Of a stretch of DNA of 64,000 nt, positions 647 through 63,261 are shown in pieces. Source of the DNA: an uncultured Dehalococcoidia bacterium (GTDB lineage: Bacteria; Chloroflexota; Dehalococcoidia; Lucifugimonadales; UBA3495); the NCBI GenBank assembly GCA_951813535.1, contig OX638345.1, positions 2,823,158 to 2,887,157 of the forward strand, written 5' to 3'. A program made the translations under genes and the position numbers. Positions within the stretch are counted from its first letter, which is position 1. Every line of letters starts with the position of its first letter. Below the pieces are notes generated by a model. The model did no database searches. It was not told the origin of the DNA and worked only from the letters and a program-made list of their open reading frames with translations.

Positions 647-677
647 TTGGCGGCAGCCGGAAGAAGGAGCGGCCCTA

Positions 678-8079: not shown

Positions 8080-8163
8080 GTTGCTCCTCTCAATGTCATT
8101 GCGACGCCGTACTCGATGCGGGGGTGGCAATCTCGGCGCCGCGCGGCTGTCACCGGTCGACGA

Positions 8164-8610: not shown

Positions 8611-8676
8611 TGAAAACCTCCGGCCCGCTCGCTTCTCCGGGACATCGCCTCGGGCAGCGGGTTTCAAGACTCGGAA

Positions 8677-20711: not shown

Positions 20712-21671
20712 ATGCAGTACGGTATTACGCTCCCCGGCCGGGGTCCGCTGTCCACCCCCGATAATCTGGCAGCCATCGCCCAGCGTGCCGAATCCTTGGG
20801 CTTCGACTCCGTCGCCCTGGGCGACCACATTCTGGTGCCTAGGAGTATCGATTCTGATTACCCGTACACCGAGACCGGAGAATTTCCGGGTTCGGCCTCG
20901 GGTCAGGCGATGGAGCAGATCACCGCGCTCGCCTACATGGCCGGATGCACCAGCACCATTCGCCTGGCGACCTCCGTGCTCATCGTGCCCCATCGCAACC
21001 CTTTGGTGGCTGCCAAAGCGCTGGCGACATTGGACGTCCTGTCGGGCGGCAGGCTCATCGTGGGCGTCGGCGTCGGCTGGTGTCGGGAGGAGTTCGACGC
21101 TGTGGGATGCGAGCCTTTCGACGAACGCGGCGCGGTGACCGACGAGTACATCCGCGCTTTCAAGGAACTGTGGACGTCCGACGATCCGACGTTTGAAGGA
21201 GAGTACGTCAGTTTTTCCGACATCTGGTTCCTCCCGAAACCTGTCCAGAAGCCCCATCCGCCCTTCTGGGTAGGCGGCGAGAGCCGTCCCGCGATCCGCC
21301 GTGCCGCTACCCTTTGCGACGGTTGGTACCCAATAGGCAACAACCCAGCCTTCCCCGTGGGCACTCCCGAAGCGTTGCAGAACAGCATGGCCCGCTTGCG
21401 TAGCACTGCCGAGCGTGCCGGACGCGATCCCGACGAAATCCAGATCATATATCGCTCTCACGACTACCGGATCACCGGCACCGACACCAGCCCCGACCGC
21501 ACGCTCTTCACCGGCAGCGGCCAACAGATCGCCGGCGATATTCAACAGTACGAAGAGATGGGTGTCAGCTATCTGGTTCTGGACATTGCCCGCCTGAGCG
21601 CCGACGGCAATTTGGAAGAAACCCTGGGACACCTGGAAGACTTCACCACCCAGGTCGTTGCGCGGGTCTGA
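20712..21671 (+). CDS. LLM-class (luciferase-like) F420-dependent-type oxidoreductase
   Basis: GFDSVALGDHILVP, LDVLSGGRLIVGVGVGW and HPPFWVGGES motifs of the Rv2161c-like LLM family. Confidence 0.88.
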   Translation: MQYGITLPGRGPLSTPDNLAAIAQRAESLGFDSVALGDHILVPRSIDSDYPYTETGEFPGSASGQAMEQITALAYMAGCTSTIRLATSVLIVPHRNPLVAAKALATLDVLSGGRLIVGVGVGWCREEFDAVGCEPFDERGAVTDEYIRAFKELWTSDDPTFEGEYVSFSDIWFLPKPVQKPHPPFWVGGESRPAIRRAATLCDGWYPIGNNPAFPVGTPEALQNSMARLRSTAERAGRDPDEIQIIYRSHDYRITGTDTSPDRTLFTGSGQQIAGDIQQYEEMGVSYLVLDIARLSADGNLEETLGHLEDFTTQVVARV

Positions 21672-24196: not shown

Positions 24197-25111
24197 ATGG
24201 AATTCGGCGTGACTGTTCCAAATAACTGGGGTGTCGAGGACCCACAGGCAGTGGTCAATTTCGGGCCATTGGCCGAAGAACTGGGATTCGATTCCGTTTG
24301 GGTAATGGATCACCTGTTTAACAACGGCTATATACGAGAACGACTGGACGACAAGCCGTATTACCATCCCATGGCGACCCTGTCCCACATTTCTGCCCTG
24401 ACTGGGCGAGTGAAGCTGGGCACGTCGGTGCTCGTCCTGCCGTATCACAACCCCGTGGAGTTGGCTAAGTACGCTGCCACGCTGGATCAAATGTCCGGCG
24501 GCCGCGTGATCCTGGGCGTGGGGGCTGGCGCCATGACCCCTGAATTCGAGGCGTTGGGCATACCGCTGAGCCAGCGAGGGTCCTTAACCAACGAGTCAAT
24601 GGACGTCATGCGCGAGCTATGGGCCAACGAAGACCCTCGGTACAGCAGCGACCGCTGGGAATTCGGCGACCTCAAGTTCTCTCCCAAGCCAGTTCAATCT
24701 GTAGCTGATTCGCCCCACGTTCCCTTGTGGGTTGGCGGCGGCAGTACCGCCGCGTTACGTAGAGCCGCTCGGAGAGGCAACGGTTGGCACCCGTCCGGTG
24801 TGAGCGCCGAGGAATTCGCCATCGGTCGTCAGCGCGTCCGGGAGTTGGCCGAGTCCGCCGGCCGCGATCCCGATGATCTGGCGATGTCCGCCCGCGTGGA
24901 AGTGGAAGCCCATGGCGGCCCGTCCAGCCAGCGCGCTGCCGACCGATCACGGCTCCCGGGGCATGATGCGGCGGGAATGGTCGCCGGAATTGCCGCCTTC
25001 CAGGAGGCCGGTGTGCAGCACATCGTGTTGGCCCTCAATACCGGAGATGTGGGACGACTCCGTGAGTTGATGCATTCCATAGCGGAAGACGTCATCTCGC
25101 AGTTCGATTAG
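24197..25111 (+). CDS. LLM-class F420-dependent-type oxidoreductase
   Basis: GFDSVWVMDH, LDQMSGGRVILGVGAG and PLWVGGGS motifs. AAGGAG RBS. Confidence 0.88.
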   Translation: MEFGVTVPNNWGVEDPQAVVNFGPLAEELGFDSVWVMDHLFNNGYIRERLDDKPYYHPMATLSHISALTGRVKLGTSVLVLPYHNPVELAKYAATLDQMSGGRVILGVGAGAMTPEFEALGIPLSQRGSLTNESMDVMRELWANEDPRYSSDRWEFGDLKFSPKPVQSVADSPHVPLWVGGGSTAALRRAARRGNGWHPSGVSAEEFAIGRQRVRELAESAGRDPDDLAMSARVEVEAHGGPSSQRAADRSRLPGHDAAGMVAGIAAFQEAGVQHIVLALNTGDVGRLRELMHSIAEDVISQFD

Positions 25112-25237: not shown

Positions 25238-27505
25238 CTACAGAGTTGCCTCCAGCACGCTCCCGGGGGTGATGGGCAGGCTGGTCAACCGCTGGTTCGT
25301 GGCGTGACCCACCGCGTTGGCGACAGCCGCCAACGGAGGAACAATAGGCACCTCGCCCACGCCACGCACACCGTACGGGTGACCCGGATTCGCCACTTCC
25401 ACGATTACCGTATCTATCATGGGCAGGTCCAAAGACGTCGGCATGCGGTAGTCCAGGAAACTCGAGTTCATCATCTGCCCGTTGTCACCGAAATAATACT
25501 CCTCGTTCAGCGCCCAGCCGATGCCCTGGACCGCCCCGCCCTGGATCTGGCCTTCCACGTAGCTCGGGTGCACCGCCTTGCCGGCGTCCTGAATAGCGGT
25601 GTAACGCAGAACTTCGGTCTTGCCGGTTTCCGGGTCAACCTCGACGTCGACCAGGTGCACGCCGAAAGAATTGCCCTCGCCGGTGGGATCGAGGCTCGCG
25701 GTTCCGGTAATGCCTCCCCCGGTGGTGTAGAGCTGGCGTGCCAGGTCCTTGAAGGTGAAACTCAGCTCTTCGGACTTATGCCGGATCTCGCCGCCGTCGT
25801 ACTCAACATCCTCCACCGGAACATCCCATATTGAGGCAGCGCGTTGGACCATCTGCTGTTTGACGTCTTCCGCCGCGAGAATGGCCGCCCAACCCGTGGC
25901 AAACGTTGTGCGGCTTCCCCCGGTGACCATGGTGAACCCGATAGAGTCCGTATCCACCACCTGCGGCTTGATTTCATCGTACGCTATACCCAGGGTTTCA
26001 GCAGCTTGCTGCGCTATGGAGGCGCGGGAACCGCCGATGTCCACCGAACCTTCGATCAGGTTCACGGTCCCATCCGGGTTTACCGTCATGTTCACGCTGG
26101 AATGGAACCCGCGGTTCATCCAAAAGCCGGCGGCGATACCGCGTCCTCGATTCGACCCTTCCAGAGGCGACCGGTAGTGCTCGTGGTTGCGTGCGGCTTC
26201 CAGACATTCAACCAGGCCAATCTTCTGAAAAACCGGACCTTCAACCTTGCGTGAGCCCTCGGTTACTGTGTTGTTCAGGCGGAATTCCACCGGGTCAACG
26301 CCCAGCTTTTGGCAGAGCTCGTCCACGACTTGCTCCACGCCGAACGCCGCCTGCGGTGAGCCGGGCGCTCGATATGCGGCCGTCTTCGGCTTGTTGACGA
26401 CTACGTCGTATCCCTCGACAGTCCCGTTTTCCAGTTCGTAGCAGGCGAAGGCGCAGGTGGCGCCCTGCATTACCGGCGATCCCGGATACGCCCCGGCCTC
26501 GAAGGCCAACTCGATTTCTGCGGCGGTGATCTTGCCGGCTGAATCGGCGCCCATCTTGACCCGCATCCAACTGCCGGGCGCTGGTCCGCTTCCCTCGAAT
26601 ACTTCGGTGCGGCTCATCAACACTTTGACCGGAGCTCCCGCCTTGCGAGACAGCAGCGCGGCGACCGGCTCCAGGTAGAATGTCACCTTGCCGCCGAACC
26701 CGCCCCCGATCTCCATGGGCGTCACCCGAACGCTGGATACGTCGATCCGCAATACGTCTGCGGTGTTGGCGCGTACCACAAACGCGCCCTGAGTACTGCA
26801 CCAGATATTGATCTGTCCGTCGGCGCGCCAATGGGCGGTCGCGTTATGCGGTTCAATGTAACCCTGGTGCACGGAGGCCGTGGTGAATTCCCGTTCGACT
26901 ATCACGTCGGAGTTGGCGAATCCGGCAGCAGTGTCCCCCTTGTCAAATTTCATGTAGGACGCGACGTTGCTGGGCTTGTCCGAGATCTCGCCCATGGCGG
27001 AAGTGTGGACCAGATCATCATGCAGGAGCGGAGCGCCGTCTTGCATCGCAGCTCGAACATCGATCACGGGCTCCAACACCTCGTAGTCGACGTCGATCAG
27101 ATCCAGCGCGGCTTCCGCGATGTGGGCATTTTCAGCCGCCACCGCAGCGACGGCGTGTCCACGATATAGCGCCTTGTCACTGGCGAGAAAGTTGTCGCTC
27201 AGGAACTTGAACCGGTTGTAGTCGTTGCTCAGGTCTTCTCTGCTGAGTGCCGCGAAGGGCAGGTCGGCCGCGGTAACCACGGCTCGGACTCCGGCAAGGG
27301 CTTCTGCCCTGCTCGTGTCGATGGAATTGATCCGGGCGTGCGCGTGCGGGCTTCGCAAAACTCGGGCGTGCAACAGTCCCGTCAGCTCAAGGTCCGCCCC
27401 ATATTGGGCGCGGCCGGTTACCTTATCCACTCCATCGGGGCGCACTGGGCGCTTCCCCACAACCTCGTATTCCACTTCCGATAGGACTTGGTTGGCCGTG
27501 GTCAT
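25238..27505 (-). CDS. xanthine dehydrogenase family molybdopterin-binding large subunit (CoxL/aldehyde oxidase-like)
   Basis: 755 aa. Motifs GGGFGGK, AAYRAPGSPQAAFGVE and PYGVRGVGE. Confidence 0.9.
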   Translation of the reverse strand: MTTANQVLSEVEYEVVGKRPVRPDGVDKVTGRAQYGADLELTGLLHARVLRSPHAHARINSIDTSRAEALAGVRAVVTAADLPFAALSREDLSNDYNRFKFLSDNFLASDKALYRGHAVAAVAAENAHIAEAALDLIDVDYEVLEPVIDVRAAMQDGAPLLHDDLVHTSAMGEISDKPSNVASYMKFDKGDTAAGFANSDVIVEREFTTASVHQGYIEPHNATAHWRADGQINIWCSTQGAFVVRANTADVLRIDVSSVRVTPMEIGGGFGGKVTFYLEPVAALLSRKAGAPVKVLMSRTEVFEGSGPAPGSWMRVKMGADSAGKITAAEIELAFEAGAYPGSPVMQGATCAFACYELENGTVEGYDVVVNKPKTAAYRAPGSPQAAFGVEQVVDELCQKLGVDPVEFRLNNTVTEGSRKVEGPVFQKIGLVECLEAARNHEHYRSPLEGSNRGRGIAAGFWMNRGFHSSVNMTVNPDGTVNLIEGSVDIGGSRASIAQQAAETLGIAYDEIKPQVVDTDSIGFTMVTGGSRTTFATGWAAILAAEDVKQQMVQRAASIWDVPVEDVEYDGGEIRHKSEELSFTFKDLARQLYTTGGGITGTASLDPTGEGNSFGVHLVDVEVDPETGKTEVLRYTAIQDAGKAVHPSYVEGQIQGGAVQGIGWALNEEYYFGDNGQMMNSSFLDYRMPTSLDLPMIDTVIVEVANPGHPYGVRGVGEVPIVPPLAAVANAVGHATNQRLTSLPITPGSVLEATL

Positions 27506-27529
27506 TTTGGTTCACCTCCTAAAAGTGTA

Positions 27530-27551
27530 GGGGCGAATGGTCATTCGCCCC
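27530..27551. repeat. palindromic element ggggcgaatgg/tcattcgcccc in the small-to-large subunit spacer
   Basis: 10 of 11 arm positions are complementary, giving a 9-bp stem with a 4-nt loop. Confidence 0.5.
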
Positions 27552-27610
27552 CACCACTGAGAACATCGAAACGGCCGCCGGCTCCTCACCGGTCGGCAAC
27601 AAACGGGAGC

Positions 27611-28087
27611 CTATGCTCGCATTCGTTCTCCGGCGTCGATTACCGCTCGGACGATCTTATCGTAACCGGTGCAACGGCACAGATTACCGGCCAACCAGTG
27701 GCGTATGCGTGCTTCGTCTGCATCCGGCTCGGCTTCTAGCAGGGCCTTGGCGGCTACGATGAAGCCAGGGGTGCAGATGCCGCACTGGAGAGCAGCATTT
27801 TCAAGGAAAGACTGCTGAATCGGATGCAACCCCTCAGCGGAGGCCACGCCCTCGATCGTGTTGACCTCTGCTCCCTGTGCCTCCACTCCGAGGACCAGGC
27901 AGGAAGTAACGATGCGGCCATCCAGGTTGACGGTGCAGGCTCCGCAGTTGCCGTCGTTGCAGCCTTCCTTGGAGCCAGTCATACCCACGACGTCGCGCAG
28001 GCATTCCAGCAGGCTTTGCCGCGGCTCGCACAGGAAGTCGGTCTGGTTGCCATTGATGGTGGTAGTTACGTGGACAAGTCCGGGCAT
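27611..28087 (-). CDS. (2Fe-2S)-binding small subunit (CoxS-like)
   Basis: CNDGNCGACTV and CGICTPG...CRCTGY cluster motifs. Confidence 0.92.
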   Translation of the reverse strand: MPGLVHVTTTINGNQTDFLCEPRQSLLECLRDVVGMTGSKEGCNDGNCGACTVNLDGRIVTSCLVLGVEAQGAEVNTIEGVASAEGLHPIQQSFLENAALQCGICTPGFIVAAKALLEAEPDADEARIRHWLAGNLCRCTGYDKIVRAVIDAGERMRA

Positions 28088-28089
28088 TG

Positions 28090-28971
28090 TTACTCCTCCC
28101 CTCGGGCGCGCCGGATGGCGATGTTCAGGGTGCGGCGGGTCAGCACGTCCACCAGGTGGTGACGCTGGCGGATCGTGCCGCGCATGTCGGTAATGGGGCT
28201 GGCCGCTTCGCTGGCCAGTCGTCCGGCTTCTGCGATGGCGTCGTCAGAGACCGCCTTGCCGGCCAGGCTGTCGCCCGCCGCAGTAGCCAGAATCGGGGTT
28301 GGTCCCACTGAGGCCAGGGCGATGCGTGCGGATTGGACCGTCTGTCCGGAAGCGTCCAGAACCACCGAGGAGGAAACGCCGGCGACAGCGATGTCCATCT
28401 CATTCCGCGGGATGAAGCGAAGGTACGCAGTGCCCGAGTTGGCAACCGGCGCCGGGATTTGAATCCCTACCAAAATTTCGCCGGCTTCCAGGACACTCCT
28501 GCCGGGTCCGGTGCAGAAGTCCTCCGCCGCGACGGCACGCCAACCGTTAGGTCCGTTGATGTGCGCTTCGCCACCGAGAGTGATGATCGGGGGAATACTG
28601 TCCCCGGACGGCGCAGCGTTGCACAGGTTCCCGCCGATCGAAGCTCTGCCCTGGATCTGAATGCTTCCAATGAGGCCGGCGGCGTCGATCAGGCCAGGGT
28701 AAGCAGCGGCAACGGCCTGATTCTGATAGATCTCATAACAGGGGACAGCAGCGCCCAGGCGCAACCCGCTGTCGGTCAATTCGATCTGGTTCAACTCTGG
28801 GATCGTCTTGGCGTCCAACAGAACGTCCAGTTCTCGCCGGCCACCGCGGAGTTGGACAATAATGTCCGTTCCACCGGCCAACGGGCGGGCGCGATCGCCG
28901 TGTGCGGACAACACCGAAACGGCTTCGCTGAGAGATGTAGGGGCAACGTAGTCAATAGCTCGCATGGGCAC
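28090..28971 (-). CDS. FAD-binding medium subunit (CoxM-like)
   Basis: LAGGTDIIVQLR and ASIGGNLCNAAP motifs. 2-nt gap to the small subunit. Confidence 0.9.
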   Translation of the reverse strand: MPMRAIDYVAPTSLSEAVSVLSAHGDRARPLAGGTDIIVQLRGGRRELDVLLDAKTIPELNQIELTDSGLRLGAAVPCYEIYQNQAVAAAYPGLIDAAGLIGSIQIQGRASIGGNLCNAAPSGDSIPPIITLGGEAHINGPNGWRAVAAEDFCTGPGRSVLEAGEILVGIQIPAPVANSGTAYLRFIPRNEMDIAVAGVSSSVVLDASGQTVQSARIALASVGPTPILATAAGDSLAGKAVSDDAIAEAGRLASEAASPITDMRGTIRQRHHLVDVLTRRTLNIAIRRARGEE

Positions 28972-38858: not shown

Positions 38859-39020
38859 TCGAGCCCCGTCTGCTTCATCGAGTCAGACGGTAAGCGCTGG
38901 ACGCCGATTAAGAATCATACCAGACCTGCAATTGTCGATCGGTAGGTGGACGACCGGCGCGTTGCCCACGGTCCGATCCGTGTGTACACTGCCGGAAGTT
39001 TTTGCGTTGAGGAGCACAAT

Positions 39021-40067
39021 ATGGATTTCGCCTTGTTTTCCCATATACCCTGGCCGGAAGAACATACGCCGCGAGCGCTCTTTTCGGATTTGTTAGAGCA
39101 GGCCGTGGCCGGCGAGGAAATGGGTTTCAAGGCTATCTGGTTGGCCGAGCATCATTTCACCCGCTACGGCTTGGGGGCCTCCTCGCTGGTGATCGCCAGC
39201 AATATCGCGGCCCGGACCGATAGAATACGGCTCGGGACTGCGGTTCTGATACCGCCCCTGCATCACCCGGTACGGCTGGCGGAAGACACCGCTACGCTGG
39301 ATATCCTGAGCGATGGCCGGCTGGACGTCGGGTTCGGGCGAGGCGCCTCGAGTTCAGAGTACGGCAACTTTGGCGTAGACCACGCCGAGAGCCAGGCTCG
39401 CTACCGCGAGACTATCGAGATGGTGGAAACCCTCTGGACGACTCGCGACTGCACTTTCGAGGGCGAGTACTACGCTACGGAGCGCCTCAACCTGGTGCCC
39501 ACGCCCTTGCAACGACCGCACCCGCCGGTCTATGTGGCGGCAACACGCAGCGCCGAGTCGCTGGAATTCGTATCTTCCACCGGAAGACGGCTGATTATTG
39601 GCGTCGTCCTCAACACAGACGACGCCATGGAATTGCTGCAGCGTTTCCTGACGCAGGCTCAGGCCAGCGGCCACGCTGCGACAGCTTCAGACGTCCCATT
39701 CTTTCGCTATTTTTACGTGGCTGAAACTGAAGAACAGGCCCACCGCGACGCCCGCGACGCCCTGAACTGGACGTTGGACATCAATACGTGGAGGCGCGAG
39801 TTTTCGGTTGGGAGCGAGGTATACGACAGCATCCAGGATTACCGTGAACGCAGGACAGAATTGCCGCCTTCCTACGAGTATCTGGCCGAGCACCGGGCAT
39901 TCATCGGCACCCCGGATCAGTGCGCCGCCAAGATACAGGCCCTTCATGACGCCGGGGTTCGCTACTTCGGCTGCAATTTCGCTTTCGGAGGCTTGGATCA
40001 GAAAAAGCAGTTGCGCTCGATGGAACTTTTCGCGCGGGAAGTGATGCCTAGATTCGTCGACCAGTAG
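39021..40067 (+). CDS. LLM-class flavin-dependent oxidoreductase
   Basis: GFKAIWLAEHHF and LDILSDGRLDVGFGRG motifs. ATG at 39021 follows GAGGAG. Confidence 0.88.
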   Translation: MDFALFSHIPWPEEHTPRALFSDLLEQAVAGEEMGFKAIWLAEHHFTRYGLGASSLVIASNIAARTDRIRLGTAVLIPPLHHPVRLAEDTATLDILSDGRLDVGFGRGASSSEYGNFGVDHAESQARYRETIEMVETLWTTRDCTFEGEYYATERLNLVPTPLQRPHPPVYVAATRSAESLEFVSSTGRRLIIGVVLNTDDAMELLQRFLTQAQASGHAATASDVPFFRYFYVAETEEQAHRDARDALNWTLDINTWRREFSVGSEVYDSIQDYRERRTELPPSYEYLAEHRAFIGTPDQCAAKIQALHDAGVRYFGCNFAFGGLDQKKQLRSMELFAREVMPRFVDQ

Positions 40068-51318: not shown

Positions 51319-54153
51319 TCACGCCGCCAATTCAACCCGACACGGCTCGAGGTGTAAACCCGGAACGCGGGCCATGGGATTGATATCCTCGGAGGCCTGA
51401 AGTTCGACGGCTAACTGACCGAACAAGGTGGTGATCGACACTACACCCGGCGGGACGGCCGGGTCCAGGTACGCGAGACCGGTGATCCGATTGCTTGCGG
51501 TCACGACGGCCACAGCCGCTTCATTGGAGATGCCCCAAGCGGTTGCATCCGCCGGATTGACACTCACCTGCTCGTCGCGCACGATGCGATTCAGCTGCCC
51601 CGATTCGACCGTGATATCTCTTTCACTCTGCAAAAGGACCCGGCCTGGAGCGAAGACGGCAGGCAGGTCAGGTTCGGTAACCATCGAAACTGCGCGGAAC
51701 AGAGGGGCGCCTGGTTCGGCTTTTCCGTTGGGGAACCCGTTGGCGTACAGAACCGAGGTTGAGGGGCTTGCAGCGGTAGGGCAGGGCCACTGTATGCCAC
51801 GTTCTTCGCGCGTCGTGTACAGCAATTGGGTGGGCCTGGGAGCATCCACGCCCGTCTGCATCACCAATGCCGTTTCCTGTGCCAACCGTTGATAGCTGAT
51901 ACCCCCGTAGTTCGGAGCTATCGAAGCTATTTCGTCCATGACCCGGGCGGGTTCGTCGTAGTTCATGCCATCCATATCCAACCGGCGGGACAGCTCGGCA
52001 AATATCCATCCTTCCGGCATGGCGTCGTTGTTGCGGACGGTGATCGCGGGCCGGACGCGCTGGACACGGCGCTCCAAGTTAGTGAGCGTGCCTTCTTTTT
52101 CTGCGATTGTGGCCCGCGGCAGAACAACATCGGCGACCTGAGCCACCGGGGACAGGAAAGTGTCCACAACCGCGAGAAATTCCAGCTGTTCGAATGCCGC
52201 CAAATCGCTGCCGAGAAGGCCGTTGGAATAGTTCGGGCTATCGCCGATCACCAGCATGGCGTTGACGCTGCCGCCTGCCGATGCGAGCATGGCCGCAGCG
52301 CCCTTGCCGGCCGAGGACGGCAGCGACGTTCCCCAAGCGGCCTCCACGCGCACCCGGTGGGCGTCGTCAAACGTGGGGGCTCCACCAGGGAGGCGATCAG
52401 GCAGGCAACCCACATCGATGGCTCCCTGTCCATTGGCGCCCTGTCGCATCGGGATTATCCCGCCCGACGGCTGGTCCACGTTGCGGGTGAGCAACGCCAA
52501 GTCGGCCAGAGCGACCACGCATTCACGGGTGATTTCGTTGGGCAGATTGTCAAGGCCGTAGACGATGGCCGCAGTGTCCGCCGCGCCATACATCCTGGCA
52601 GCGCGGGCGATGTCTTCAAGGGGAACCCCCGTCGCAGCAATGGTGTCGTCGTCCAAGCGTTCCAATTCGTAAACCAGGGTGTCGTAACTGTCCGCGTGTT
52701 CAGCGAGCCATGCGCCGTCGATGTAGTCTTCCTGAAACACCTGTTTCAGAATCGCTCCCAAAAGCAGCAACTCTGTGCCAGGCACTGGCCGTAGCCACAG
52801 ATCGGCGTACCGAGTTAGCTCCACCTCGCGCGTATCGATGACGATCAGCGGCGTACCGTTGCGGGCGGCGCGCTTGATCGGAACGCCCACCACATTGTGG
52901 CTTTCGGTCAGGTTCGTGTTGAACACCAGGATGCAGCCGGCCTTTTCCAAATCCCAAATGGAGTTGGTGGCCCCGGGGTAGCCGAGGACATCTTCCAGGG
53001 CCCCGGTGAGGGCGGGCTGCGTGTTGCCAGAATGATCGATATTGTTCGTGCTCATCCCGACGCGGGCGAATTTTTGGGCCAGGTAGAGCTCCTCGTTGGT
53101 GCTGTCCGGCGCGGTGATCAGACCGAAACCCTCTCCCGTCTGATGGGGCCGGAGCCGTTCGGCAACCAGATCCAGAGCCTCTTCCCAAGTGGCATTTTCC
53201 AGACGGCCGTTGCGACGTATCATGGGGCGGCGCATGCGCTGTCCGCTGGTCAGATGGCCCAGGCCGAACTTCCCCTTGTAGCAAGCCTGGCCGCGGTTGG
53301 CGGGAGAGTTGAGTTCAGGAATGGCACGGATCACCCGGCCTTGCTCGTTGATTTCCAGGTTCATCTGACAGCCGACGGGGCAGTGCGTGCAGACGGTGCG
53401 CTCCACCCGGGCGGCCTTTTCCCATTTGCCCTCTCGCTCGGTCAGGGCGCCGACGGGGCAAACGTCAATGCACGCGCCGCAGAACTCGCAGCCCGACTCC
53501 AGTAGAGACGTACCGAATGAGGTGCCTACCAACGCATTGCCGGACCGCTCGGTGAAGCAGATGGCGTTGTCACCGCGCACTTCTTCGCAGGCTCGGACAC
53601 AGCGCCCGCAAGTGATACACAGATTGTAGTCGCGATCATAGAATGGGTCGCTGACCTCCAAGGGGATATCGCGGTACATATAGGTCATGGGCGATTCGAG
53701 CTCCATCCCTAAGTACCGTACGGTGTCCTTGAATTCGCAACGCTCGTTCTTGGGACAGGTGATGCAACGATCGTTCACCGAGACGTGCCGCAGGCAGACG
53801 TCTGATGGTCCGCAGATGTCGACTCGGTGGCAAGTGAGGCAGCCGTTGGGGTGCTCGGCGATGAGCATCTGCATGACGGAGCGGCGTAGCTCTATGACAT
53901 CGGGCGTTTCGCTCCACACGGTCATGCCGTCGGTGGCTGCCAGGGTGCAGGCGGCCGGGAACCCCGGTACGCGTCCTCGCTCGTTTTCCGCGACCACCAC
54001 GCACATCCGGCACGCGGCATAGGGCTTCATACCCGAGTGGTAGCACAGGTACGGCACGTAGACGCCGGCATCGATGGCGGCTTCGAGCACCATCTTCCCG
54101 GGCTGGGTCTTGATTTCCACCCCGTCGATTGAGATGGTGATATCGTCAGGCAT
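51319..54153 (-). CDS. NuoG/Nqo3-like Fe-S plus molybdopterin-oxidoreductase-fold subunit
   Basis: N-terminal 2Fe-2S (CYHSGMKPYAACRMC) and several 4Fe-4S motifs, then an MopB-type domain. ATG at 54153 (the track ORF has 31 extra codons). Confidence 0.86.
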   Translation of the reverse strand: MPDDITISIDGVEIKTQPGKMVLEAAIDAGVYVPYLCYHSGMKPYAACRMCVVVAENERGRVPGFPAACTLAATDGMTVWSETPDVIELRRSVMQMLIAEHPNGCLTCHRVDICGPSDVCLRHVSVNDRCITCPKNERCEFKDTVRYLGMELESPMTYMYRDIPLEVSDPFYDRDYNLCITCGRCVRACEEVRGDNAICFTERSGNALVGTSFGTSLLESGCEFCGACIDVCPVGALTEREGKWEKAARVERTVCTHCPVGCQMNLEINEQGRVIRAIPELNSPANRGQACYKGKFGLGHLTSGQRMRRPMIRRNGRLENATWEEALDLVAERLRPHQTGEGFGLITAPDSTNEELYLAQKFARVGMSTNNIDHSGNTQPALTGALEDVLGYPGATNSIWDLEKAGCILVFNTNLTESHNVVGVPIKRAARNGTPLIVIDTREVELTRYADLWLRPVPGTELLLLGAILKQVFQEDYIDGAWLAEHADSYDTLVYELERLDDDTIAATGVPLEDIARAARMYGAADTAAIVYGLDNLPNEITRECVVALADLALLTRNVDQPSGGIIPMRQGANGQGAIDVGCLPDRLPGGAPTFDDAHRVRVEAAWGTSLPSSAGKGAAAMLASAGGSVNAMLVIGDSPNYSNGLLGSDLAAFEQLEFLAVVDTFLSPVAQVADVVLPRATIAEKEGTLTNLERRVQRVRPAITVRNNDAMPEGWIFAELSRRLDMDGMNYDEPARVMDEIASIAPNYGGISYQRLAQETALVMQTGVDAPRPTQLLYTTREERGIQWPCPTAASPSTSVLYANGFPNGKAEPGAPLFRAVSMVTEPDLPAVFAPGRVLLQSERDITVESGQLNRIVRDEQVSVNPADATAWGISNEAAVAVVTASNRITGLAYLDPAVPPGVVSITTLFGQLAVELQASEDINPMARVPGLHLEPCRVELAA

Positions 54154-54203
54154 GGCGATTCCTAGTCGAAAATAGAGCAGCGGCGAGATCAGGCGGCGGC
54201 TGA

Positions 54204-55961
54204 TCAGCGGCGAGTGAGGCGCGGCGAGAACACCTGGTCGGGACAATCACCGGTGTGCCGCTTTTCGCGAATGTGAGCGTCGAATTCGTGGCCAAAATAC
54301 CGGAGAGCGGACGACACCGGGTTGAACCCCAGCTGCCCGTGTCCGCACAGGGAACCGGCCTGCATGTTTTCGCCGATGTTGCGCATCAGCGCCAAGTCTT
54401 CCTCGGTGCCCTCGAGATTGCTGATGCGTTCCAAAACTTCGAGCAGGTGGCTCATACCCATGCGGCAGGGGAAGCACTTCCCGCAGGATTCGTACTGGCA
54501 AAAAGCGATGAGATTGCGCGTCAGGTCCACCACGCACGTATCCTCGTCAGCAACGATTATCCCGCCCGAGCCCAGAATGGCGCCGGCGGCGCGGAAGACG
54601 TCGAAATCGAGCACCAAGTCCAGGTTGGCGTCGCTGGCGGAAAGGACGCCTCCCAGCGGGCCGCCCGTCTGGAGCACTTTCATGGTCTTGCCGTTGGGAA
54701 CGCCACCGGCCATATCGAAGAGCACCTGGCGCAGGGTCATTCCCAGCGGAACTTCAATCAAGCCGGTGTAGGTGATATCTCCGGACAAGCACAGGATCGC
54801 GGTGCCGCTGCTTCCGTTGATCCTATTGTCCGGGTCGGGCTGGGTTCCGATACCGGCGAACCACTCCCCACCACGCGCCACGATCTCGGGCACGTACGCG
54901 AGCGTCTTGACGTTGTTGATGTTCGACGGCTTGCCGAAAACTCCCACCTGGGCGGGGAAAGGAGGTCGGTAACGGGGCATCGAGCGCTTGCCCTCGATGG
55001 CCTCCATCAAGGCCGTCTCTTCGCCGGAAACGTACGAGTCCCCGGTCAAGGCGACCTCGACGTCGAAGGAAAAATCGGTCCCCAGGATATTCTGGCCCAG
55101 GAGACCGAGATCGTAGGCCTGCTGGATGACGGCGCGAGTACGGTCGATAGGTTGGTTGTGGCCGTGCCGAATAAAGATGTAGCCGCGGTTGGCGTTGCAG
55201 GCGTATCCCGCAATGGTGATGCCTTCCACCACGGTTGCCGGATCGCTCTCCAGGATGCCCCTATCATTGAAAGCGCCCGGATCACCTTCCTCGCAGTTGC
55301 ACAGGATGTACTTGTTGGGATCAGGGTTGCCGGCCAGAAATCCCCATTTGATGCCGGCCGGGAAGGCCGCGCCGCCGCGACCACGGAGCCCGGAGGTCCG
55401 AACCTCGCCGAGCGTGGCTTCCGGGGTTATCTCGGTGAGCGCCTTGTTCAAGGCAGCATATCCGCCGTTGGCGATGTACTGGTGGAGGTCCGAGGGATCG
55501 ATGTTGCCGGCATTGCGCAGGGCGATGCGCTGCTGCAGGGCCATCATCGGGTGGTCTGCAAGGTTCGGAATTCCCGGAGGCGCCTGCGCCTGGGTGCCGA
55601 GGTAACCGATGGCGTGTTCCGCCAGCGGGTCGCCGCCGGCCACATGCTCACGCACGATGCGCTCGGCAAGTTCGGGCGTGACCTGGCTGTAGAACACCCG
55701 TGGCCCGCCTGGAGTCTGGACGTCCAGCAACGGCTCCGCGAAGCACAGGCCCAACGTACCGACCTCGGACACGTTGGCTGCCACCTGATGCTGTTCCAAG
55801 GCTGCTTTTACAGCGGCGACGACCTCGAACCCGCCAGCAGCTTCGCCGGCCAACCCGGTACCGACACGAATCCACGGCCGATCACCCGCGGTCAGGTTAT
55901 CCCAGCGGCGCCTCGCCTCTTCGAGGATGGCGTTGAAGGAGGATTCCGTCTGCACAGTCAC
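54204..55961 (-). CDS. NuoF-like NADH-binding flavoprotein subunit with N-terminal thioredoxin-like extension
   Basis: GLRGRGGAAFP, CNCEEGDPGAF and ESCGKCFPCR...LCGHGQ motifs. Confidence 0.9.
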   Translation of the reverse strand: MTVQTESSFNAILEEARRRWDNLTAGDRPWIRVGTGLAGEAAGGFEVVAAVKAALEQHQVAANVSEVGTLGLCFAEPLLDVQTPGGPRVFYSQVTPELAERIVREHVAGGDPLAEHAIGYLGTQAQAPPGIPNLADHPMMALQQRIALRNAGNIDPSDLHQYIANGGYAALNKALTEITPEATLGEVRTSGLRGRGGAAFPAGIKWGFLAGNPDPNKYILCNCEEGDPGAFNDRGILESDPATVVEGITIAGYACNANRGYIFIRHGHNQPIDRTRAVIQQAYDLGLLGQNILGTDFSFDVEVALTGDSYVSGEETALMEAIEGKRSMPRYRPPFPAQVGVFGKPSNINNVKTLAYVPEIVARGGEWFAGIGTQPDPDNRINGSSGTAILCLSGDITYTGLIEVPLGMTLRQVLFDMAGGVPNGKTMKVLQTGGPLGGVLSASDANLDLVLDFDVFRAAGAILGSGGIIVADEDTCVVDLTRNLIAFCQYESCGKCFPCRMGMSHLLEVLERISNLEGTEEDLALMRNIGENMQAGSLCGHGQLGFNPVSSALRYFGHEFDAHIREKRHTGDCPDQVFSPRLTRR

Positions 55962-56559: not shown

Positions 56560-57216
56560 TCAGTTTTCGCCGGCCTCGCGATTTTCCAAAGCCTTGTCCA
56601 TCACACGCTGGAAAACCTCGTAAGGTTGGGCGCCACTGAAAAGCAGGTTGTCGAAAACGAAGGTCGGTATCCCACGGATGCCGTAGCCCAAGGCTTCGTG
56701 ATACTGGTCAACCACTTTCTGCGCATAGTGGCCCGATTCCACGCGTTCGCGCAGCTCGCCGCCATCAAGGCCGACGCGGGAGCCGATGTCAGCCAGAACC
56801 GACGGATCTCCGAGATCGGCCCCGTTGTCCCAATACGCCTCGTAAGCGGCGTGGTGGTACTCGAGGAATTTGCCCTGTTCCTGGGCGTACTCGGTCGCCT
56901 GGAGGGAGTACAGGCTGTTTGGAGTGTGCTTCGGCGGCCGCATCACCAGGTTGGCCTCCCGCGCATAGGTCCGGAGGGGGTCGGCCAGCTCGTCATCGGA
57001 TTCCCCGGAGCGGGCCTCGCGTACGCGGCCCTCCTGCGGCGTGTCGGGGCGCAAAAGATAGGCTCGGCCCTCGACGGTGATGTCGTATTCTTCCGCAAGT
57101 TTGTCGACGCGCTCAAGGCCGACATAGCACCAGGGTCAAATATAGTCGTACCACACGATCACATGAACGGGATTGGGGTCGTCCGGATGGCTGTGGGCCG
57201 GCGGCTGGGTGGTCAT
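56560..57216 (-). CDS. DsbA/FrnE-family thiol oxidoreductase, candidate selenoprotein (TGA 57136-57138 read as Sec, U-P-W-C motif)
   Basis: ATG 57216 lies 4 nt after AGGAGA. The translation runs MTTQPPAHSHPDDPNPVHVIVWYDYI-[TGA]-PWCYVGLERVDKLAEEYDITVEG... and ends ...GIRGIPTFVFDNLLFSGAQPYEVF. The two track ORFs (57136..57582 and 56560..57054) share a frame and are separated only by this TGA. Confidence 0.72.
57102..57124 (-). promoter_or_regulatory. SECIS-like hairpin 11 nt downstream of the TGA
   Basis: mRNA UGUCGGC-CUUGAGCGC-GUCGACA: a 7-bp stem (one G-U pair) with a 9-nt loop. Confidence 0.4.
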
Positions 57217-57280
57217 GACATCTCCTGTATGGGTAGCACGGTCCGAGGTCGGCGCGGATTTCGCGGCGAGAGGCTGTCGG

Positions 57281-57991
57281 CTAGCAGGACACCAAACGGT
57301 CCAGCAGGGGGTACAGGCCTTCCAGGCTGTCGATATGGTCGCAATCCACCACGTCGGCATGAAAGCCGCCGCGGTCGATAAGGACAGGGAGGAGGCCAGC
57401 ATCTCGTGCGCCCTGGACATCAGATTTCGGTTGGTCGCCGACGTGTATGGCTTGTTCGGGGCGCAACGCCATACGCTGGAGAGCCGCCTCAAAAATAGCG
57501 GTGGCAGGTTTTTCGCCAGCCTCGCGACTGGTGATGCAGAACTCCAGGTATTGGCGAATCCCCAGCCGCTCGGTGAGTTCATTCATATCCCGACGCAGGT
57601 TGGTCAGGACAGCCAACCTGTAGCCGCGACTGTTCAGCTCTTTCAATACCGAACGGGTTTCTTCGAACTCCACCAGTTCTTTGGGCACGGATATCGCCAT
57701 ATCCCAGATCTGCTTGGCCATGCGCAGAGACACGGCAACCCCCGATTCCTCGAGGATGATCTGTTCGTAGCGGGCGAAGAATTCGTCGCGGGCGGCGGTG
57801 TCGCGTTCACCCAGTGGCCAACGATGATTTTCCTCGTTGAAATAGAGATCGGCGACGGCATAACCGCCGGCCAGCCGGTCGGCGGGTACGCGTATGCCCA
57901 GGTTCTGGCAGGCGGCGTGCTGGATCTGCGGCAACGGCGGCCAGAAACGCACCAGGGTGTTGTAAAAGTCGAAAAAGACGGCCTCAATCAT
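57281..57991 (-). CDS. HAD family hydrolase (subfamily IA-like)
   Basis: FFDFYNTLV (a DxYxT motif I variant, as seen in haloacid-dehalogenase-type members), LTN, a K-P motif and VGDQPKSDVQGA. Confidence 0.82.
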   Translation of the reverse strand: MIEAVFFDFYNTLVRFWPPLPQIQHAACQNLGIRVPADRLAGGYAVADLYFNEENHRWPLGERDTAARDEFFARYEQIILEESGVAVSLRMAKQIWDMAISVPKELVEFEETRSVLKELNSRGYRLAVLTNLRRDMNELTERLGIRQYLEFCITSREAGEKPATAIFEAALQRMALRPEQAIHVGDQPKSDVQGARDAGLLPVLIDRGGFHADVVDCDHIDSLEGLYPLLDRLVSC

Positions 57992-58145
57992 CTGTAGGAA
58001 GCGCAGAAAGGGCGTTCATTTTCGCCGGGCGGCCCAACGCTGCGCAGGCCAATGATAGCACAACGCATGAGGCGTGGCCCGGGGGAGGCCGGTGTCTGAC
58101 CGGACAACAATCGCGATTGTCGGGCGGTCGGGCACAGGTTGATGT

Positions 58146-58922
58146 CTACAACGTTACCAGTTCGACGAGAGCGGCGGAGACCTCTGCCGGAGAGGCTAAT
58201 CGCCAGGTCGCGCAGGTACTGACCCCGGGCGCCCCCACGTATACTCCAATACCCCCAGCGGACCGGACTGCGCCGAAAGCATCTTCGTCGGTTGCGTCGT
58301 CGCCCATGTAGATGGGGAAAGACTTTGGGGACAACCGAGATCGGATCAACGTGAGGGCTCTGCCCTTGTTCCAGTCGATCGACGGGCGAAGTTCCAAAGC
58401 CATCTTGGCTTCGGTGACATGGCAAAATCCAGACTGGACCAATGGATGGGCAATATCGTCAAACGTGGACACGACCCGGTCGTGATAGTAAGGCGGAGTT
58501 TGCCGGAAATGCGTAGTGAGGGTGTAGGTCTTGTTTTCGACGAAAGCGCCGGGCACACCTGCCAAACGGAGTTCCAGATCGTGGGACGCCTCGCTGATGG
58601 TTCGGGACGCAGCCTCAGCATCGGGGTGGCGGTAATCCATTCCGAGGCCGCGTATCTCCAGGCCATGGTTGCCGGCGTACACCAGGCCCGGAACGTTCAC
58701 CCGCGCCTCGACGTCCTGCAGAGACCGTCCGCTGATCACTCCGACCACGAACTCGGGACGCTCGACGAGTTGGCAGAGCAGTGACTGATTCCCAGGGCAC
58801 AGGGTGGCCTGTTCAGGCCGGGGAGCGATTTCTGATAGGGTCCCGTCGAAATCGAGAAGGAGCAGGATGGGGTCCCGCCCGATGACCAGGTCTTTCAGTT
58901 CGTCGAGGTTGAGATCGAGCAT
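58146..58922 (-). CDS. otsB: trehalose-phosphatase
   Basis: LLLDFDGTLSEI and YMGDDATDEDAF motifs. ATG at 58922 lies 11 nt after the otsA stop. Confidence 0.84.
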   Translation of the reverse strand: MLDLNLDELKDLVIGRDPILLLLDFDGTLSEIAPRPEQATLCPGNQSLLCQLVERPEFVVGVISGRSLQDVEARVNVPGLVYAGNHGLEIRGLGMDYRHPDAEAASRTISEASHDLELRLAGVPGAFVENKTYTLTTHFRQTPPYYHDRVVSTFDDIAHPLVQSGFCHVTEAKMALELRPSIDWNKGRALTLIRSRLSPKSFPIYMGDDATDEDAFGAVRSAGGIGVYVGAPGVSTCATWRLASPAEVSAALVELVTL

Positions 58923-58933
58923 GGGGATGGGCT

Positions 58934-60442
58934 CTATGCCGTGGTCGCAATAGTGAGGCGGGAGTGGTCGGGGGTGCTCGCCTGCATGAGGTGCATCATG
59001 ATGCGGCCGGCCCATTTGTAAATGTTGTTTTCGCGGACCGTGTTGCGCATCTGGCGCATCCGGATGCGGCGCTCCGCGCCACTCATGGTGAGGGCCTGGT
59101 GAATGGCTTCGGCGAACTGCTCGGTGGCGTAGGGGTTGATTATGAGCGAGCCGGTGAGTTCCTGGGCGGCCCCGGCGAAAGCGCTGAGGATGAGCACGCC
59201 ATCCTCATCGACACGGGAAGCCACGTACTCCTTGGCCACGAGGTTCATGCCGTCGTGGAGGCTGCTCTCGGCGCAGAAACTGGCGAGACGGCGCAGCGCC
59301 GAAAAAGTCACCGAGGGCAGGGAAGTAGGCCAATAGAGTACCGGCTGCCAGCCGTCGTGGCCGAAACGCTCGTTGATGCGGTTGACGGTGGCCTCGATGT
59401 CTATGGTCAGCTGCATGTACGAGTCGATGTTGGTGCGACTGGTGGCTCCGGCTTGGAGGAACACCAACTGCCCGCGGTACTGGGGCCATTTCTCAAACAG
59501 ACGCTCGACGGCTCGGAGGCGATGGGGGATGCCCTTGGTGTAGTCCTGCCGGTCGATGCCCAGGCCAAGGATGCGACCGCGGTTCAATCCCAATTGCCGG
59601 GAAAGGCGGGCCATTTCGGCTTCAACTTCATCGGATCTGGCCTCGGCGTCGAGACTGTCGAAATCGATGCTGATGGGGAATGGACGCACCAGGGTGGTCT
59701 CGTCCCTGTAGTCGATGAGGCCGTATTCGGAATCGACGTGAGCATCCAGGTTCGCATCAACGCAGTTGAGGAAGTTCTGACAGTCTCCGGAGAGGTGGAA
59801 GCCCAGGAGATCGTTGCCCAGCATGCCGTCAAGAATTTCGTCCTGCCAAGGGCAAATCCGCAAGATGTCTGGATTGGGCCACGGAATATGCCAGAACTGC
59901 CCGATTATGGCATCCGGATTGACCTCACGGATGTATCTGGGGAGGAGGGCCAGATGATAGTCCTGGATCAGAACGATGGCCGGCTCGTCGTTGATTTCGT
60001 CGAGCACCAGGTCCGCGAAGCGCCGGTTCACCGACTGATAGAAGCCGTAGTGCTCCGCGTCGAAAACCGGCTCTGTGTAGGCGATGTGGCACAGCGGCCA
60101 CAGGCCCTCGTTGGCGAAGCCATAGTAAAAGCCCTGGTTCTCTTCTTTGCTCAAGCTGAGCAGCCGCATGGAGTAAGCGGGATCGTCGGTAGGCACGTGG
60201 ATACGGCCCGACGCATCCATGGCGGCACGATCATCATCACCGTCACTCTGGGCGATCCAGGTACCGCCGCAGGCGCGCATCAGCGGATCGATAGCCGCAG
60301 TCAGCCCGCCCGGGGGCATTACCCCGTGGGGCACACCGTCCAGCATCGTAAACACGTACGGCTGCCGATTTGACACCACGACCAGCCGATAGTCGCTCAA
60401 TTCCCGGCCTACCAAGCGCTGTAAATCATCGCCGGTCCACAT
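58934..60442 (-). CDS. otsA: alpha,alpha-trehalose-phosphate synthase (GT20)
   Basis: VVVSNRQPY, GFYYGFANEGLWPLCH, IQDYHLALLP and DGMNLVAKEY motifs. GGAGG RBS. Confidence 0.92.
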   Translation of the reverse strand: MWTGDDLQRLVGRELSDYRLVVVSNRQPYVFTMLDGVPHGVMPPGGLTAAIDPLMRACGGTWIAQSDGDDDRAAMDASGRIHVPTDDPAYSMRLLSLSKEENQGFYYGFANEGLWPLCHIAYTEPVFDAEHYGFYQSVNRRFADLVLDEINDEPAIVLIQDYHLALLPRYIREVNPDAIIGQFWHIPWPNPDILRICPWQDEILDGMLGNDLLGFHLSGDCQNFLNCVDANLDAHVDSEYGLIDYRDETTLVRPFPISIDFDSLDAEARSDEVEAEMARLSRQLGLNRGRILGLGIDRQDYTKGIPHRLRAVERLFEKWPQYRGQLVFLQAGATSRTNIDSYMQLTIDIEATVNRINERFGHDGWQPVLYWPTSLPSVTFSALRRLASFCAESSLHDGMNLVAKEYVASRVDEDGVLILSAFAGAAQELTGSLIINPYATEQFAEAIHQALTMSGAERRIRMRQMRNTVRENNIYKWAGRIMMHLMQASTPDHSRLTIATTA

Positions 60443-61667: not shown

Positions 61668-62234
61668 TCAGGAGGCGAGCGCAGGCTGTGGAGTGAGGAG
61701 CCAGTCCTGGGCCTGCTTGGCGGCGTCCGAGAGCCACTGGCCCATGATCGCCTCGCGCCCCTCGGGGATTTCGACTCCCAGGCCGTCAGCCAGGCGGTTC
61801 ATGAAGTTGAACACACAGGTGATGGCGACGGTGGACAGCACCTGCTGATCGGTGAGGCCCGTGGCACGCAGGCCGTCAATATCGGACTCCCGCATTAGAG
61901 CCGGGGTCAGGGTGAGTTTGACCGCGTAGTCGAGGATGGCGCGGGTCTGCGGGTCTAGGTCAGCCTGGGTGTAATCGTGGATGATGTGGCTGGAGTACTC
62001 GGGATCGTCAGAGTGTTGACGGAGGAACCCTCCGTGGGCCACGGCTCAATAACGGCAGCGGTTGACGAGGGACACCACCGTGGCGATGGCCTCTTCCTGG
62101 GTGCGGGTGAGCACTGAGGAACCGAAAGTGGCATTGGCGTTGAGGTTCTGCACAGCCGCCATCAGGTCCGGATTGATGGACATGCATTTGATAACCGCAG
62201 GCACCGCGGCGTCGGTTTCGCGGATCCAGGACAT
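61668..62234 (-). CDS. AhpD/carboxymuconolactone-decarboxylase-family peroxidase-related protein, candidate selenoprotein (TGA 62046-62048 read as Sec, C-R-Y-U motif)
   Basis: ATG 62234 lies 5 nt after AGGAGG. The translation reads ...EEAIATVVSLVNRCRY-[TGA]-AVAHGGFLRQ..., which matches the VSxxNxCxYCxxxH core of the family with the second Cys replaced by TGA. The track ORFs 62046..62234 and 61668..62042 share a frame. Confidence 0.78.
62019..62035 (-). promoter_or_regulatory. SECIS-like hairpin 10 nt downstream of the TGA
   Basis: mRNA ACGGAGG-GUU-CCUCCGU: a perfect 7-bp stem with a GUU loop. Confidence 0.5.
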
Positions 62235-62700: not shown

Positions 62701-63261
62701 TTAGGCGGCCACGGGCTGGCCGACCAGGATGGACTCCACCTCGTCGGCGATCTCGGCGGCGCGGGCCTTGACCTCATCGTCGTTGAGGCTGGACAGGGGA
62801 TGCTGCGCGACCACATAACGATAGTCGGGCACACCCATCATGCGGGTCATGGCCTGGGCAGTGTTGAGGAAAACGTGGGTGATGATGGCCGCGGTTGGGA
62901 CGCCGCGCTTCTCGAAATCGATGCCGTCGTGCACACTGCACGAGCTGCAGGACCCTCAATCCCCGACCCCGGTGATGAGGTAGTCGACCTCACCGAGGAT
63001 GGAGTCGATGGTGTCCTGCTTGGCCGGCAGGCTGGCGTGACCCTTGTCGTAGTACTTGATCTCGGAGAAACCGTGGCGTTCGTTGAGGATGTTGCCGAGT
63101 TCATGAAGGAGCTTGTCCGCGTTGGCCTTGGAGTTTTCCATGAGGCCGAGGCGCTTCCCGGCGAGGCCGGCAGAGCGGTCGTTCATGTGGAACTCGGACT
63201 GGGGCAACTCGGTGCCCCTGGGGTTGACGAGCCTGAGGCGGCTCGATTCGGCGGTTGTCAT
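62701..63261 (-). CDS. UGSC-motif protein, candidate selenoprotein (TGA 62956-62958 read as Sec, U-G-S-C-S-S-C)
   Basis: ATG 63261 lies 6 nt after GGAGG. The translation reads ...EVDYLITGVGD-[TGA]-GSCSSCSVHDGIDFEKRGVPTAAIITHVF.... The track ORFs 62956..63261 and 62701..62934 share a frame. UxxCxxC resembles the GrdB-type redox motif (from memory). Confidence 0.7.
62927..62943 (-). promoter_or_regulatory. SECIS-like hairpin 12 nt downstream of the TGA
   Basis: mRNA UCGUGCA-GUG-UGCACGA: a perfect 7-bp stem with a GUG loop. Confidence 0.5.

Follow-up and report, generated by a model that had tools for sequence, protein, structure and literature searches.

The 64,000-nucleotide stretch of contig OX638345.1 from an uncultured Dehalococcoidia bacterium (hereafter the window) carries on its minus strand, at positions 56560-57216, a gene for a DsbA/FrnE-like oxidoreductase (hereafter dsbA) whose reading frame contains an in-frame TGA. 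Comparative sequence data lead us to propose, with high confidence, that the gene encodes a genuine selenocysteine (Sec) form of an FrnE-type DsbA oxidoreductase with a U27-P-W-C30 redox site and a bacterial Sec insertion sequence (SECIS) element. A preliminary description of the window had placed Sec at the first cysteine of the CxxC motif of a DsbA/FrnE-like protein, and this assignment was supported. The features of the gene are as follows.

56560-57216, minus strand: complete predicted coding region for the Sec form of the DsbA/FrnE-like oxidoreductase; 218 codons, with U27 counted, and terminal TGA at 56562-56560
57214-57226, minus strand: Shine-Dalgarno motif AGGAG (57226-57222), 5-nt spacer and ATG start codon (57216-57214), seen in the sequence
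57136-57138, minus strand: in-frame UGA predicted to be read as Sec (U27), the N-terminal attacking residue of U-P-W-C, assigned from orthologs and the FrnE alignment
57127-57129, minus strand: TGC for Cys30, the resolving cysteine of UxxC, from the translation and invariant in all loci
57102-57124, minus strand: bacterial SECIS-like hairpin within the coding sequence, from synonymous entropy, pairing, covariation and comparison with Cys forms
56665-56667, minus strand: codon of Pro184 in G-I-P-T-F, the thioredoxin-fold cis-Pro loop facing the redox motif, from the FrnE alignment

Family assignment and position of the in-frame TGA

Translation of the minus strand from ATG 57216 gives MTTQPPAHSHPDDPNPVHVIVWYDYI-TGA-PWCYVGLERVDKLAEEY..., in agreement with the reading frame first described. 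The only internal in-frame stop before the terminal TGA is the TGA at 57138-57136 (codon 27), and Cys30 is the sole cysteine of the 218-residue product. By inspection, the N-terminus MTTQPPAHSHPDD is hydrophilic and lacks a hydrophobic signal segment, and the protein is predicted to be cytoplasmic.

For profile and structure-database comparisons of the read-through protein, U was written as C. The search against the Pfam profile DSBA (PF01323), which the preliminary description had proposed as a check on the family, yielded 122.7 bits (cutoff 25.6; E 2e-35). The match extends from residue 19 to residue 205, a span that includes the TGA and covers profile positions 2-189 of 191. The assignment to the DsbA/FrnE family was thereby borne out. 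The closest solved structures by sequence are those of Deinococcus radiodurans FrnE (5CNW and 5CP1, E 3e-15, residues 11-202), followed in the PDB by Streptomyces SCO1869 and HCCA isomerases, and periplasmic DsbA structures matched weakly and partially (E about 1e-5). The segment 'VWYDYI[U]PWCYVG' aligns on FrnE 'IWSDIACPWCYIG', so that U27 corresponds to Cys22 of C22-P-W-C25; the FrnE active-site numbering 22-CxxC-25 is confirmed in the literature (PMC8945050). In addition, G-I-P184 aligns with the cis-Pro loop 'GVPFF' of FrnE, and G182-I183-P184 is invariant in the ortholog alignment (A2).

Exhaustive searching of representative proteins with the part after the TGA revealed many full-length Cys-type relatives bearing CPWC. 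Among them, P0121 with 'FSDYICPWCYVGLARVDKL' shows 43% identity (E 3e-59), and its pairwise alignment puts a cysteine on the TGA; P0162 carries 'VWYDYICPWCYVGL'. The TGA thus falls on FrnE Cys22 and on the first cysteine of 'SDYICPWCYVGL' in the Cys-type homologs, which is the nucleophilic position that had been claimed for it. A TGA lying outside the CxxC column had been named as a ground for rejecting the claim; checked by alignment, the codon lies inside that column. The U-P-W-C motif and the hydrophilic N-terminus correspond to the CP(W/F)C pattern of predicted cytoplasmic proteins in the FrnE subfamily (cd03024), and the combination of PF01323 with U-P-W-C and no crotonase domain is that of 'DsbA-like form 1'. 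The C-terminal CxxxxC tail of FrnE is not present, as the product stops at residue 218 and contains no cysteine besides Cys30.

A different architecture was observed in P0122, P0129, P0133, P0135 and others, which are 600-1160 aa long and contain 3-5 tandem DsbA-like domains with DFQCPFC in each. Some of them have N-terminal hydrophobic segments. These proteins probably represent a separate secreted multi-domain DsbA/Thioredoxin_4 type and not relatives of interest here.

Conservation of the TGA codon

Orthologs were taken from 54 GTDB species-representative genomes (SAR202/Dehalococcoidia/Chloroflexota metagenome-assembled genomes, MAGs; 42-96% identity) and read at the DNA level, and a scan of marine, freshwater, soil and sediment metagenomes contributed 80 more loci. 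Sponges are the source of several MAGs among the closest genomes. Codon 27 is TGA in all 54 species genomes. Over the 133 genomic and metagenomic loci with the motif, the codon is TGA in 118, TGT in nine and TGC in six, the last two groups making up 15 Cys forms verified at the DNA level. The comparison with Cys-type orthologs suggested in the preliminary description thus returned cysteine at the TGA column both in these 15 loci and in the full-length CPWC proteins. The Sec form is apparently fixed in SAR202-type Dehalococcoidia (54/54 species).

The sequence in front of the TGA behaves as coding sequence. In most of the 54 orthologs an ATG lies 26 codons before the TGA, and most products measure 217-220 aa; a few others have the ATG at 24-28 codons. 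A ribosome-binding motif of the GAGG/GGAG type usually precedes this ATG. Residues of the 26 codons are conserved while synonymous change is free, with a normalised synonymous entropy of 0.58-0.63 against a gene mean of 0.625, and purifying selection was found along the entire gene.

These data bear on whether the TGA is a true stop. The product would then be an N-terminally truncated protein of about 164-186 aa made from an internal start and devoid of the redox motif, with the 26 upstream codons forming a separate small open reading frame (ORF) or remaining untranslated. Consistent with such a stop, TGA is a normal termination codon in this genome, and the 120 closest database proteins, 127-186 aa long, are all annotated as truncated forms that begin at query residue 32 or later. 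However, a truncated product would lose strand β1 and the whole CxxC site, and 118 loci preserve in frame the peptide that precedes the TGA, with a conserved ATG and Shine-Dalgarno motif. The first possible restart codon lies 21 to 65 codons after the TGA across orthologs and none is conserved, Val48 being encoded by GTC, GTG, GTT or GTA, and the Cys homologs run continuously through the TGA position. We therefore regard termination at codon 27 as highly unlikely, and the truncated entries are explained by gene callers that stop at the conserved TGA.

A second type of entry has tryptophan at the Sec column, with 'DYIWPWC' or 'DYIWPYC' (P0168, P0156, P0232, P0257 and P0269). The likeliest cause is translation of the TGA with genetic code 4, which makes these entries a second type of mis-annotation.

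Decay of the gene, or a sequencing or assembly error at codon 27, would also produce an internal stop, and the stop itself is all that speaks for either. Against this, the identical TGA recurs in 54 independent species-level assemblies and in 64 further metagenome loci. The gene has one stop and no frameshifts, most orthologs are 217-220 aa in length, and purifying selection acts throughout. The preliminary description had itself named decay in the orthologs as an outcome that would defeat its reading; in the orthologs, instead, the TGA is retained and the codons before and after it are under coding constraint. Recurrence of the TGA, full-length orthologs and purifying selection refute the pseudogene and assembly-error explanation, to which we assign a practically negligible probability.

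Nearly identical Sec and Cys twins were also found. Loci L119 (position 3036) and L123 (position 1402) encode 'VVYYDYL[U]PWCYIGQVVAERLQK' with TGA, and L112 (position 60) encodes the same peptide with TGC. The downstream hairpin is identical in the three loci, and the Cys form L112 retains 7/7 pairs. This suggests a very recent switch from Sec to Cys or from Cys to Sec.

The SECIS-like hairpin and probable Sec decoding

The hairpin downstream of the TGA consists of the 5' arm UGUCGGC (57124-57118) and the 3' arm GUCGACA (57108-57102), separated from the TGA by an 11-nt spacer. Its loop region (57117-57109) contains G57114, which is column 25 counted from the U of UGA and is invariant in 75 aligned sequences. 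The family-conserved helix comprises columns 17-23 paired with 29-35, here 57122-57116 with 57110-57104. The hairpin first described at this distance from the TGA is therefore present and essentially coincides with the conserved stem; its location and arms held, and its conserved core lies 1-2 pairs further in than first drawn.

Codon usage over this region is constrained. The minimum of synonymous entropy in the whole gene falls on codons 25-32 (0.40) and 33-40 (0.32), where Val32 is GTC in 52/52, Gly33 GGC in 54/55, Val37 GTC in 55/55 and Asp38 GAC in 55/55 sequences; valine columns elsewhere in the gene use all four codons. In the near clade, 98.3% of stem cells are paired. When 75 distinct sequences representing all Sec-type groups were compared, the helix was paired in 92.6% of cells, as compared with 25-50% for control partners slid by 1-3 columns. 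Changes on both sides were observed at three pairs (21 cells), such as U-G to A-U at 23/29 in 18 sequences and C-G to U-A at 21/31 and 22/30, and none of 500 shuffles reached the observed covariation score or percentage paired. The stem also separates the two forms of the gene, with on average 6.5 of 7 positions paired in Sec forms versus 4.1 of 7 in Cys forms. Four Cys forms with a PWCYVGQG(V/A/P)-type peptide (L098, L109, L110 and L126) use codons that destroy the stem; among the Cys forms only L112, the twin of L119, retains it. With its 11-13-nt spacer, stem of about 7 bp and small G-containing loop, the element has the geometry published for bacterial SECIS elements (PMC1088965). These comparisons indicate a hairpin specific to the TGA forms that acts as a putative bacterial SECIS. 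An alternative long-range pairing in the 66-nt minimum-free-energy fold (GGUG..AUGUCG with CGACAU..CACC) was rejected, as its 3' arm varies uncompensated in orthologs.

The window was further scanned for other selenoprotein genes. A naive scan for in-frame TGA in a redox context returned hundreds of hits at 61.5% GC and was useless; filtering by GC content at third codon positions and by overlap with Pfam-supported genes was effective. Two genes emerged.

62701-63261, minus strand: UGSC family (seleno)protein, TGA at 62956-62958 in the motif GVGD-U-GSC
61668-62234, minus strand: AhpD-like peroxidase-related enzyme, TGA at 62046-62048 in C-R-Y-U-AVAH (CxxU)

The first matches NCBIfam NF041046 with 155.7 bits (cutoff 125) and Pfam PF24696 with E 6.8e-57, and has a 7-bp hairpin with a GUG loop that starts 12 nt after the UGA. 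The second matches TIGR01926 with 129.8 bits (cutoff 81.8) and has a perfect 7-bp hairpin (ACGGAGG/CCUCCGU, GUU loop) that starts 10 nt after the UGA. The stabilities of the two hairpins are -8.9 and -10.4 kcal/mol, respectively. Both genes lie 4.5-6 kb from dsbA on the same strand with their TGAs at the Sec position of curated families. Of the related loci only L003 reaches that far, and it retains the two TGAs. One further candidate, at 7645-8667 on the minus strand, was rejected, since it consists of two hot-dog-fold genes in one frame with a true TGA stop and a short spacer between them.

7645-8130 and 8164-8667, minus strand: the two adjacent hot-dog-fold genes, FAS1_DH_region and MaoC dehydratase (Pfam)

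Several observations weigh against the Sec interpretation of dsbA. The stem is invariant in the 54 close genomes and covariation there is zero. The covariation is not purely synonymous, as the encoded residue also changes at some covarying positions across subfamilies, and the helix of this clade contains a C.C mismatch at 57117/57109 (Arg codon CGC). Single-sequence folding was not better than for shuffled sequences (z -0.91 for 66 nt and +0.43 for 50 nt); the significance of the hairpin derives from the comparative data and not from such folding. An Rfam scan of the window returned a signal recognition particle (SRP) RNA only and no SECIS family, although bacterial SECIS elements may simply be outside Rfam coverage. 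Pfam annotation of about 45 ORFs in the 64-kb window found no selA, selB or selD, and a tRNA scan of the window found no tRNA, hence no tRNA-Sec.

Sec machinery is thus not directly observed in the 64-kb window, which leaves room for a UGA read through as Trp, Cys or Gly by near-cognate suppression or under a reassigned code, with the hairpin as no more than a stimulator of read-through. Codon 27 is indeed translated as W in some database entries (P0168, P0156, P0232), but gene calling under code 4 is the best explanation for them. Of the 49 long ORFs of the window, 21 end in TGA, this gene included, which makes TGA the most frequent ordinary stop; the genetic code is therefore standard and not reassigned. 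At the codon-27 column the DNA-verified homologs have Cys, never Trp or Gly, and in the UGSC and AhpD-like genes the UGA coincides exactly with the Sec position of a curated selenoprotein family. Moreover, Dehalococcoidia are documented as selenoprotein-rich, with MAGs encoding 46 and 49 selenoproteins in the BSepDB paper (PMC13326102). Read-through with an amino acid other than Sec is thus very unlikely in our view. The two further selenoprotein genes in the window, together with these selenoprotein-rich MAGs, make it very likely that this organism uses Sec decoding.

Gene neighbourhood, related systems and proposed role

The genes on either side of dsbA differ in how stably they are linked to it.

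57281-60442, minus strand: otsA (trehalose-6-phosphate synthase), otsB (trehalose-6-phosphate phosphatase) and a HAD-IA hydrolase, in conserved gene order
51319-54246, minus strand: FdhA-like molybdopterin subunit, 975 aa
50439-51215: FNR-like NAD_binding_1 gene, after the FdhA-like gene

On the 3' side and on the same strand follow a NuoE-like [2Fe-2S] protein, a NuoF-like FMN protein and the 975-aa FdhA-like protein. The NuoE-like ATG is at 56456, which confirms the 103 nt between it and the dsbA stop reported earlier, and the minus strand of this 103-nt spacer showed no terminator-like site. Among the 54 genomes, dsbA and the NuoE-like gene are separated by anything between about 100 nt and 5.7 kb. 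The gap was examined in two genomes, L007 and L018, where insertions of 2-4 tandem Uma2-family genes (PF05685) explain the longer spacing. The NuoEF/Fdh-like module is missing 3' of dsbA in L044, L049, L052 and L054 and in most marine relatives of 58-65% identity. Of the co-transcription with the NuoE-like gene raised in the preliminary description, the terminator-free spacer is in favour and the unstable adjacency in relatives against, and we consider it possible but weakly supported.

On the 5' side, the HAD-family hydrolase (57281-57991), 64 nt from dsbA, is retained in 53 of the 54 genomes. The order otsA-otsB-HAD-dsbA is kept down to about 58% DsbA identity, and at identities lower than about 55% no conserved neighbour is left. 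As judged from gene order, dsbA is stably linked to the upstream HAD and trehalose genes, and its link with the flavoprotein genes is lineage-specific. The order otsA-otsB-HAD-dsbA(Sec) was seen at loci L056, L059, L063-L066 and L070-L076.

Other genes of the window were recorded as well. In the FdhA-like protein, Gln-Pro occupies the Cys/Sec-His site of the molybdenum ligand ('tcarvCHsptg' versus 'hsgntQPaltg' in the 9WXB_B alignment, with NAD-dependent formate dehydrogenases as the reference); it is unlikely to be a canonical formate dehydrogenase. The inserted Uma2 putative endonucleases are of about 197 aa ('RRRFTVAEYYAMADAGIL...') and lie at 6671-7873 in L007 and 6667-9088 in L018; two further Uma2 copies are in the window itself, at 441-1265 (plus strand) and 11581-12261 (minus strand). 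The SRP RNA, of the large bacterial type (RF01854, 138.7 bits), is at 4434-4695 on the minus strand. There are three luciferase-like monooxygenases (20712-21671, 24197-25111 and 38946-40067), a three-subunit molybdenum hydroxylase of the xanthine-dehydrogenase/CO-dehydrogenase type (25238-28971), six SDRs, five MFS transporters, two family-III CoA-transferases and an AcrB/HlyD efflux pair. The gene content of the window resembles the catabolic gene families reported for SAR202.

DsbA-like proteins with UxxC (COG2761) were described in 2005 by Zhang, Fomenko and Gladyshev as a new selenoprotein family of the Sargasso Sea that comprised nine sequences, had predicted SECIS elements and was accompanied by widespread Cys homologs (PMC1088965). 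The family was found in sequenced genomes in 2006 (Zhang et al., PMC1794560), and 45 proteins in 41 organisms were counted in 2016 (Peng et al., PMC5029168). A 2026 review lists them as 'DsbA-like protein form 1, PF01323, UxxC', form 2 being DxxUP in a crotonase-fused protein (PMC13188914). The gene described here shares with this family PF01323, Sec as the first residue of UxxC, a stem-loop after the UGA with a G in its small loop, widespread Cys homologs and the marine-metagenome origin. Compared by published description and not residue by residue, the two show no difference in kind. By every sequence-level criterion the gene thus belongs to the published family, as an ordinary but well-preserved member, and is not new in kind; its particulars are the origin from sponge- and ocean-associated SAR202/Dehalococcoidia and the order otsA-otsB-HAD-dsbA.

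Similar to the present protein, D. radiodurans FrnE (DR_0659), a cytoplasmic disulfide reductase/isomerase of the DsbA-FrnE subfamily cd03024, has the xPWC motif, the cis-Pro loop, a helical insertion and no evident signal peptide. Its activities are the reduction of insulin and of 5,5'-dithiobis-(2-nitrobenzoic acid) (DTNB) and the isomerisation of disulfides, and it confers protection from cadmium, diamide and oxidative stress (PMC8945050). The proteins differ at the attacking residue, Cys22 in FrnE and Sec27 here, and at the C-terminus, where FrnE has the tail C239xxxxC244 proposed to regenerate its active site and the present protein ends at residue 218. Many members of the subfamily have such a tail, but it is not obligatory, since the FrnE proteins of S. 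roseofulvus and D. maricopensis lack it (PMC8945050). DsbA of the Escherichia coli type (CPHC) has the thioredoxin fold with a helical insertion, a CxxC-type site and the cis-Pro loop in common with this protein; it is, however, an exported disulfide oxidant coupled to DsbB, whereas here the N-terminus is hydrophilic and no DsbB is nearby. The bacterial SECIS/SelB recoding mechanism is that of E. coli fdhF. The fdhF SECIS and the present hairpin are both stem-loops within the coding sequence about 11 nt after the UGA with a conserved apical-loop G, but they are unrelated in sequence, the stem of this clade carries the C.C mismatch or a bulge, and SelB binding is putative here.

Based on these comparisons, we propose a mechanism for the expression and function of the gene. 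When the ribosome meets the UGA at codon 27, the hairpin 11-13 nt downstream would serve as SECIS, as in the known bacterial mechanism. It would recruit SelB-GTP-Sec-tRNA(Sec), and the UGA would be read as Sec instead of stop. By analogy with FrnE, the product might act as a cytoplasmic disulfide reductase or isomerase, in which the selenolate would attack the substrate disulfide and Cys30 would resolve the mixed selenenyl-sulfide. As the CxxxxC tail is lacking, an external reductant such as the thioredoxin system would be needed. Sec insertion, its dependence on SelB and the reductase/isomerase role are all drawn from such analogies.

The neighbourhood also raises the idea that the Sec-DsbA is a dedicated redox partner of the adjoining NuoE-like/NuoF-like/FdhA-like module, or of the linked HAD phosphatase and trehalose genes, which we consider very unlikely. 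If the former were true, an NADH-driven flavoprotein complex would reduce, or be regulated by, a selenoprotein disulfide carrier. Either partner would imply a new electron route into an FrnE-type selenoprotein without the self-regenerating CxxxxC tail.

These results leave the understanding of how selenoproteins work unchanged. As modestly new points we note an apparently fixed Sec form in SAR202-type Dehalococcoidia, an abundant lineage of oceans and sponges (at least 54 species), the Sec-specific covariation of the putative SECIS with same-peptide Cys paralogs without the stem as a natural control, the clustering of UGSC, AhpD-like and DsbA-like selenoprotein genes within about 6 kb, and the systematic mis-annotation of these genes in public databases. 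The three-gene cluster fits recent reports of very large Dehalococcoidia selenoproteomes. The main value lies in annotation, as the 120 closest public proteins are recorded without their active site. Redox inventories of SAR202/Dehalococcoidia based on such annotation therefore undercount active thiol/selenol oxidoreductases.

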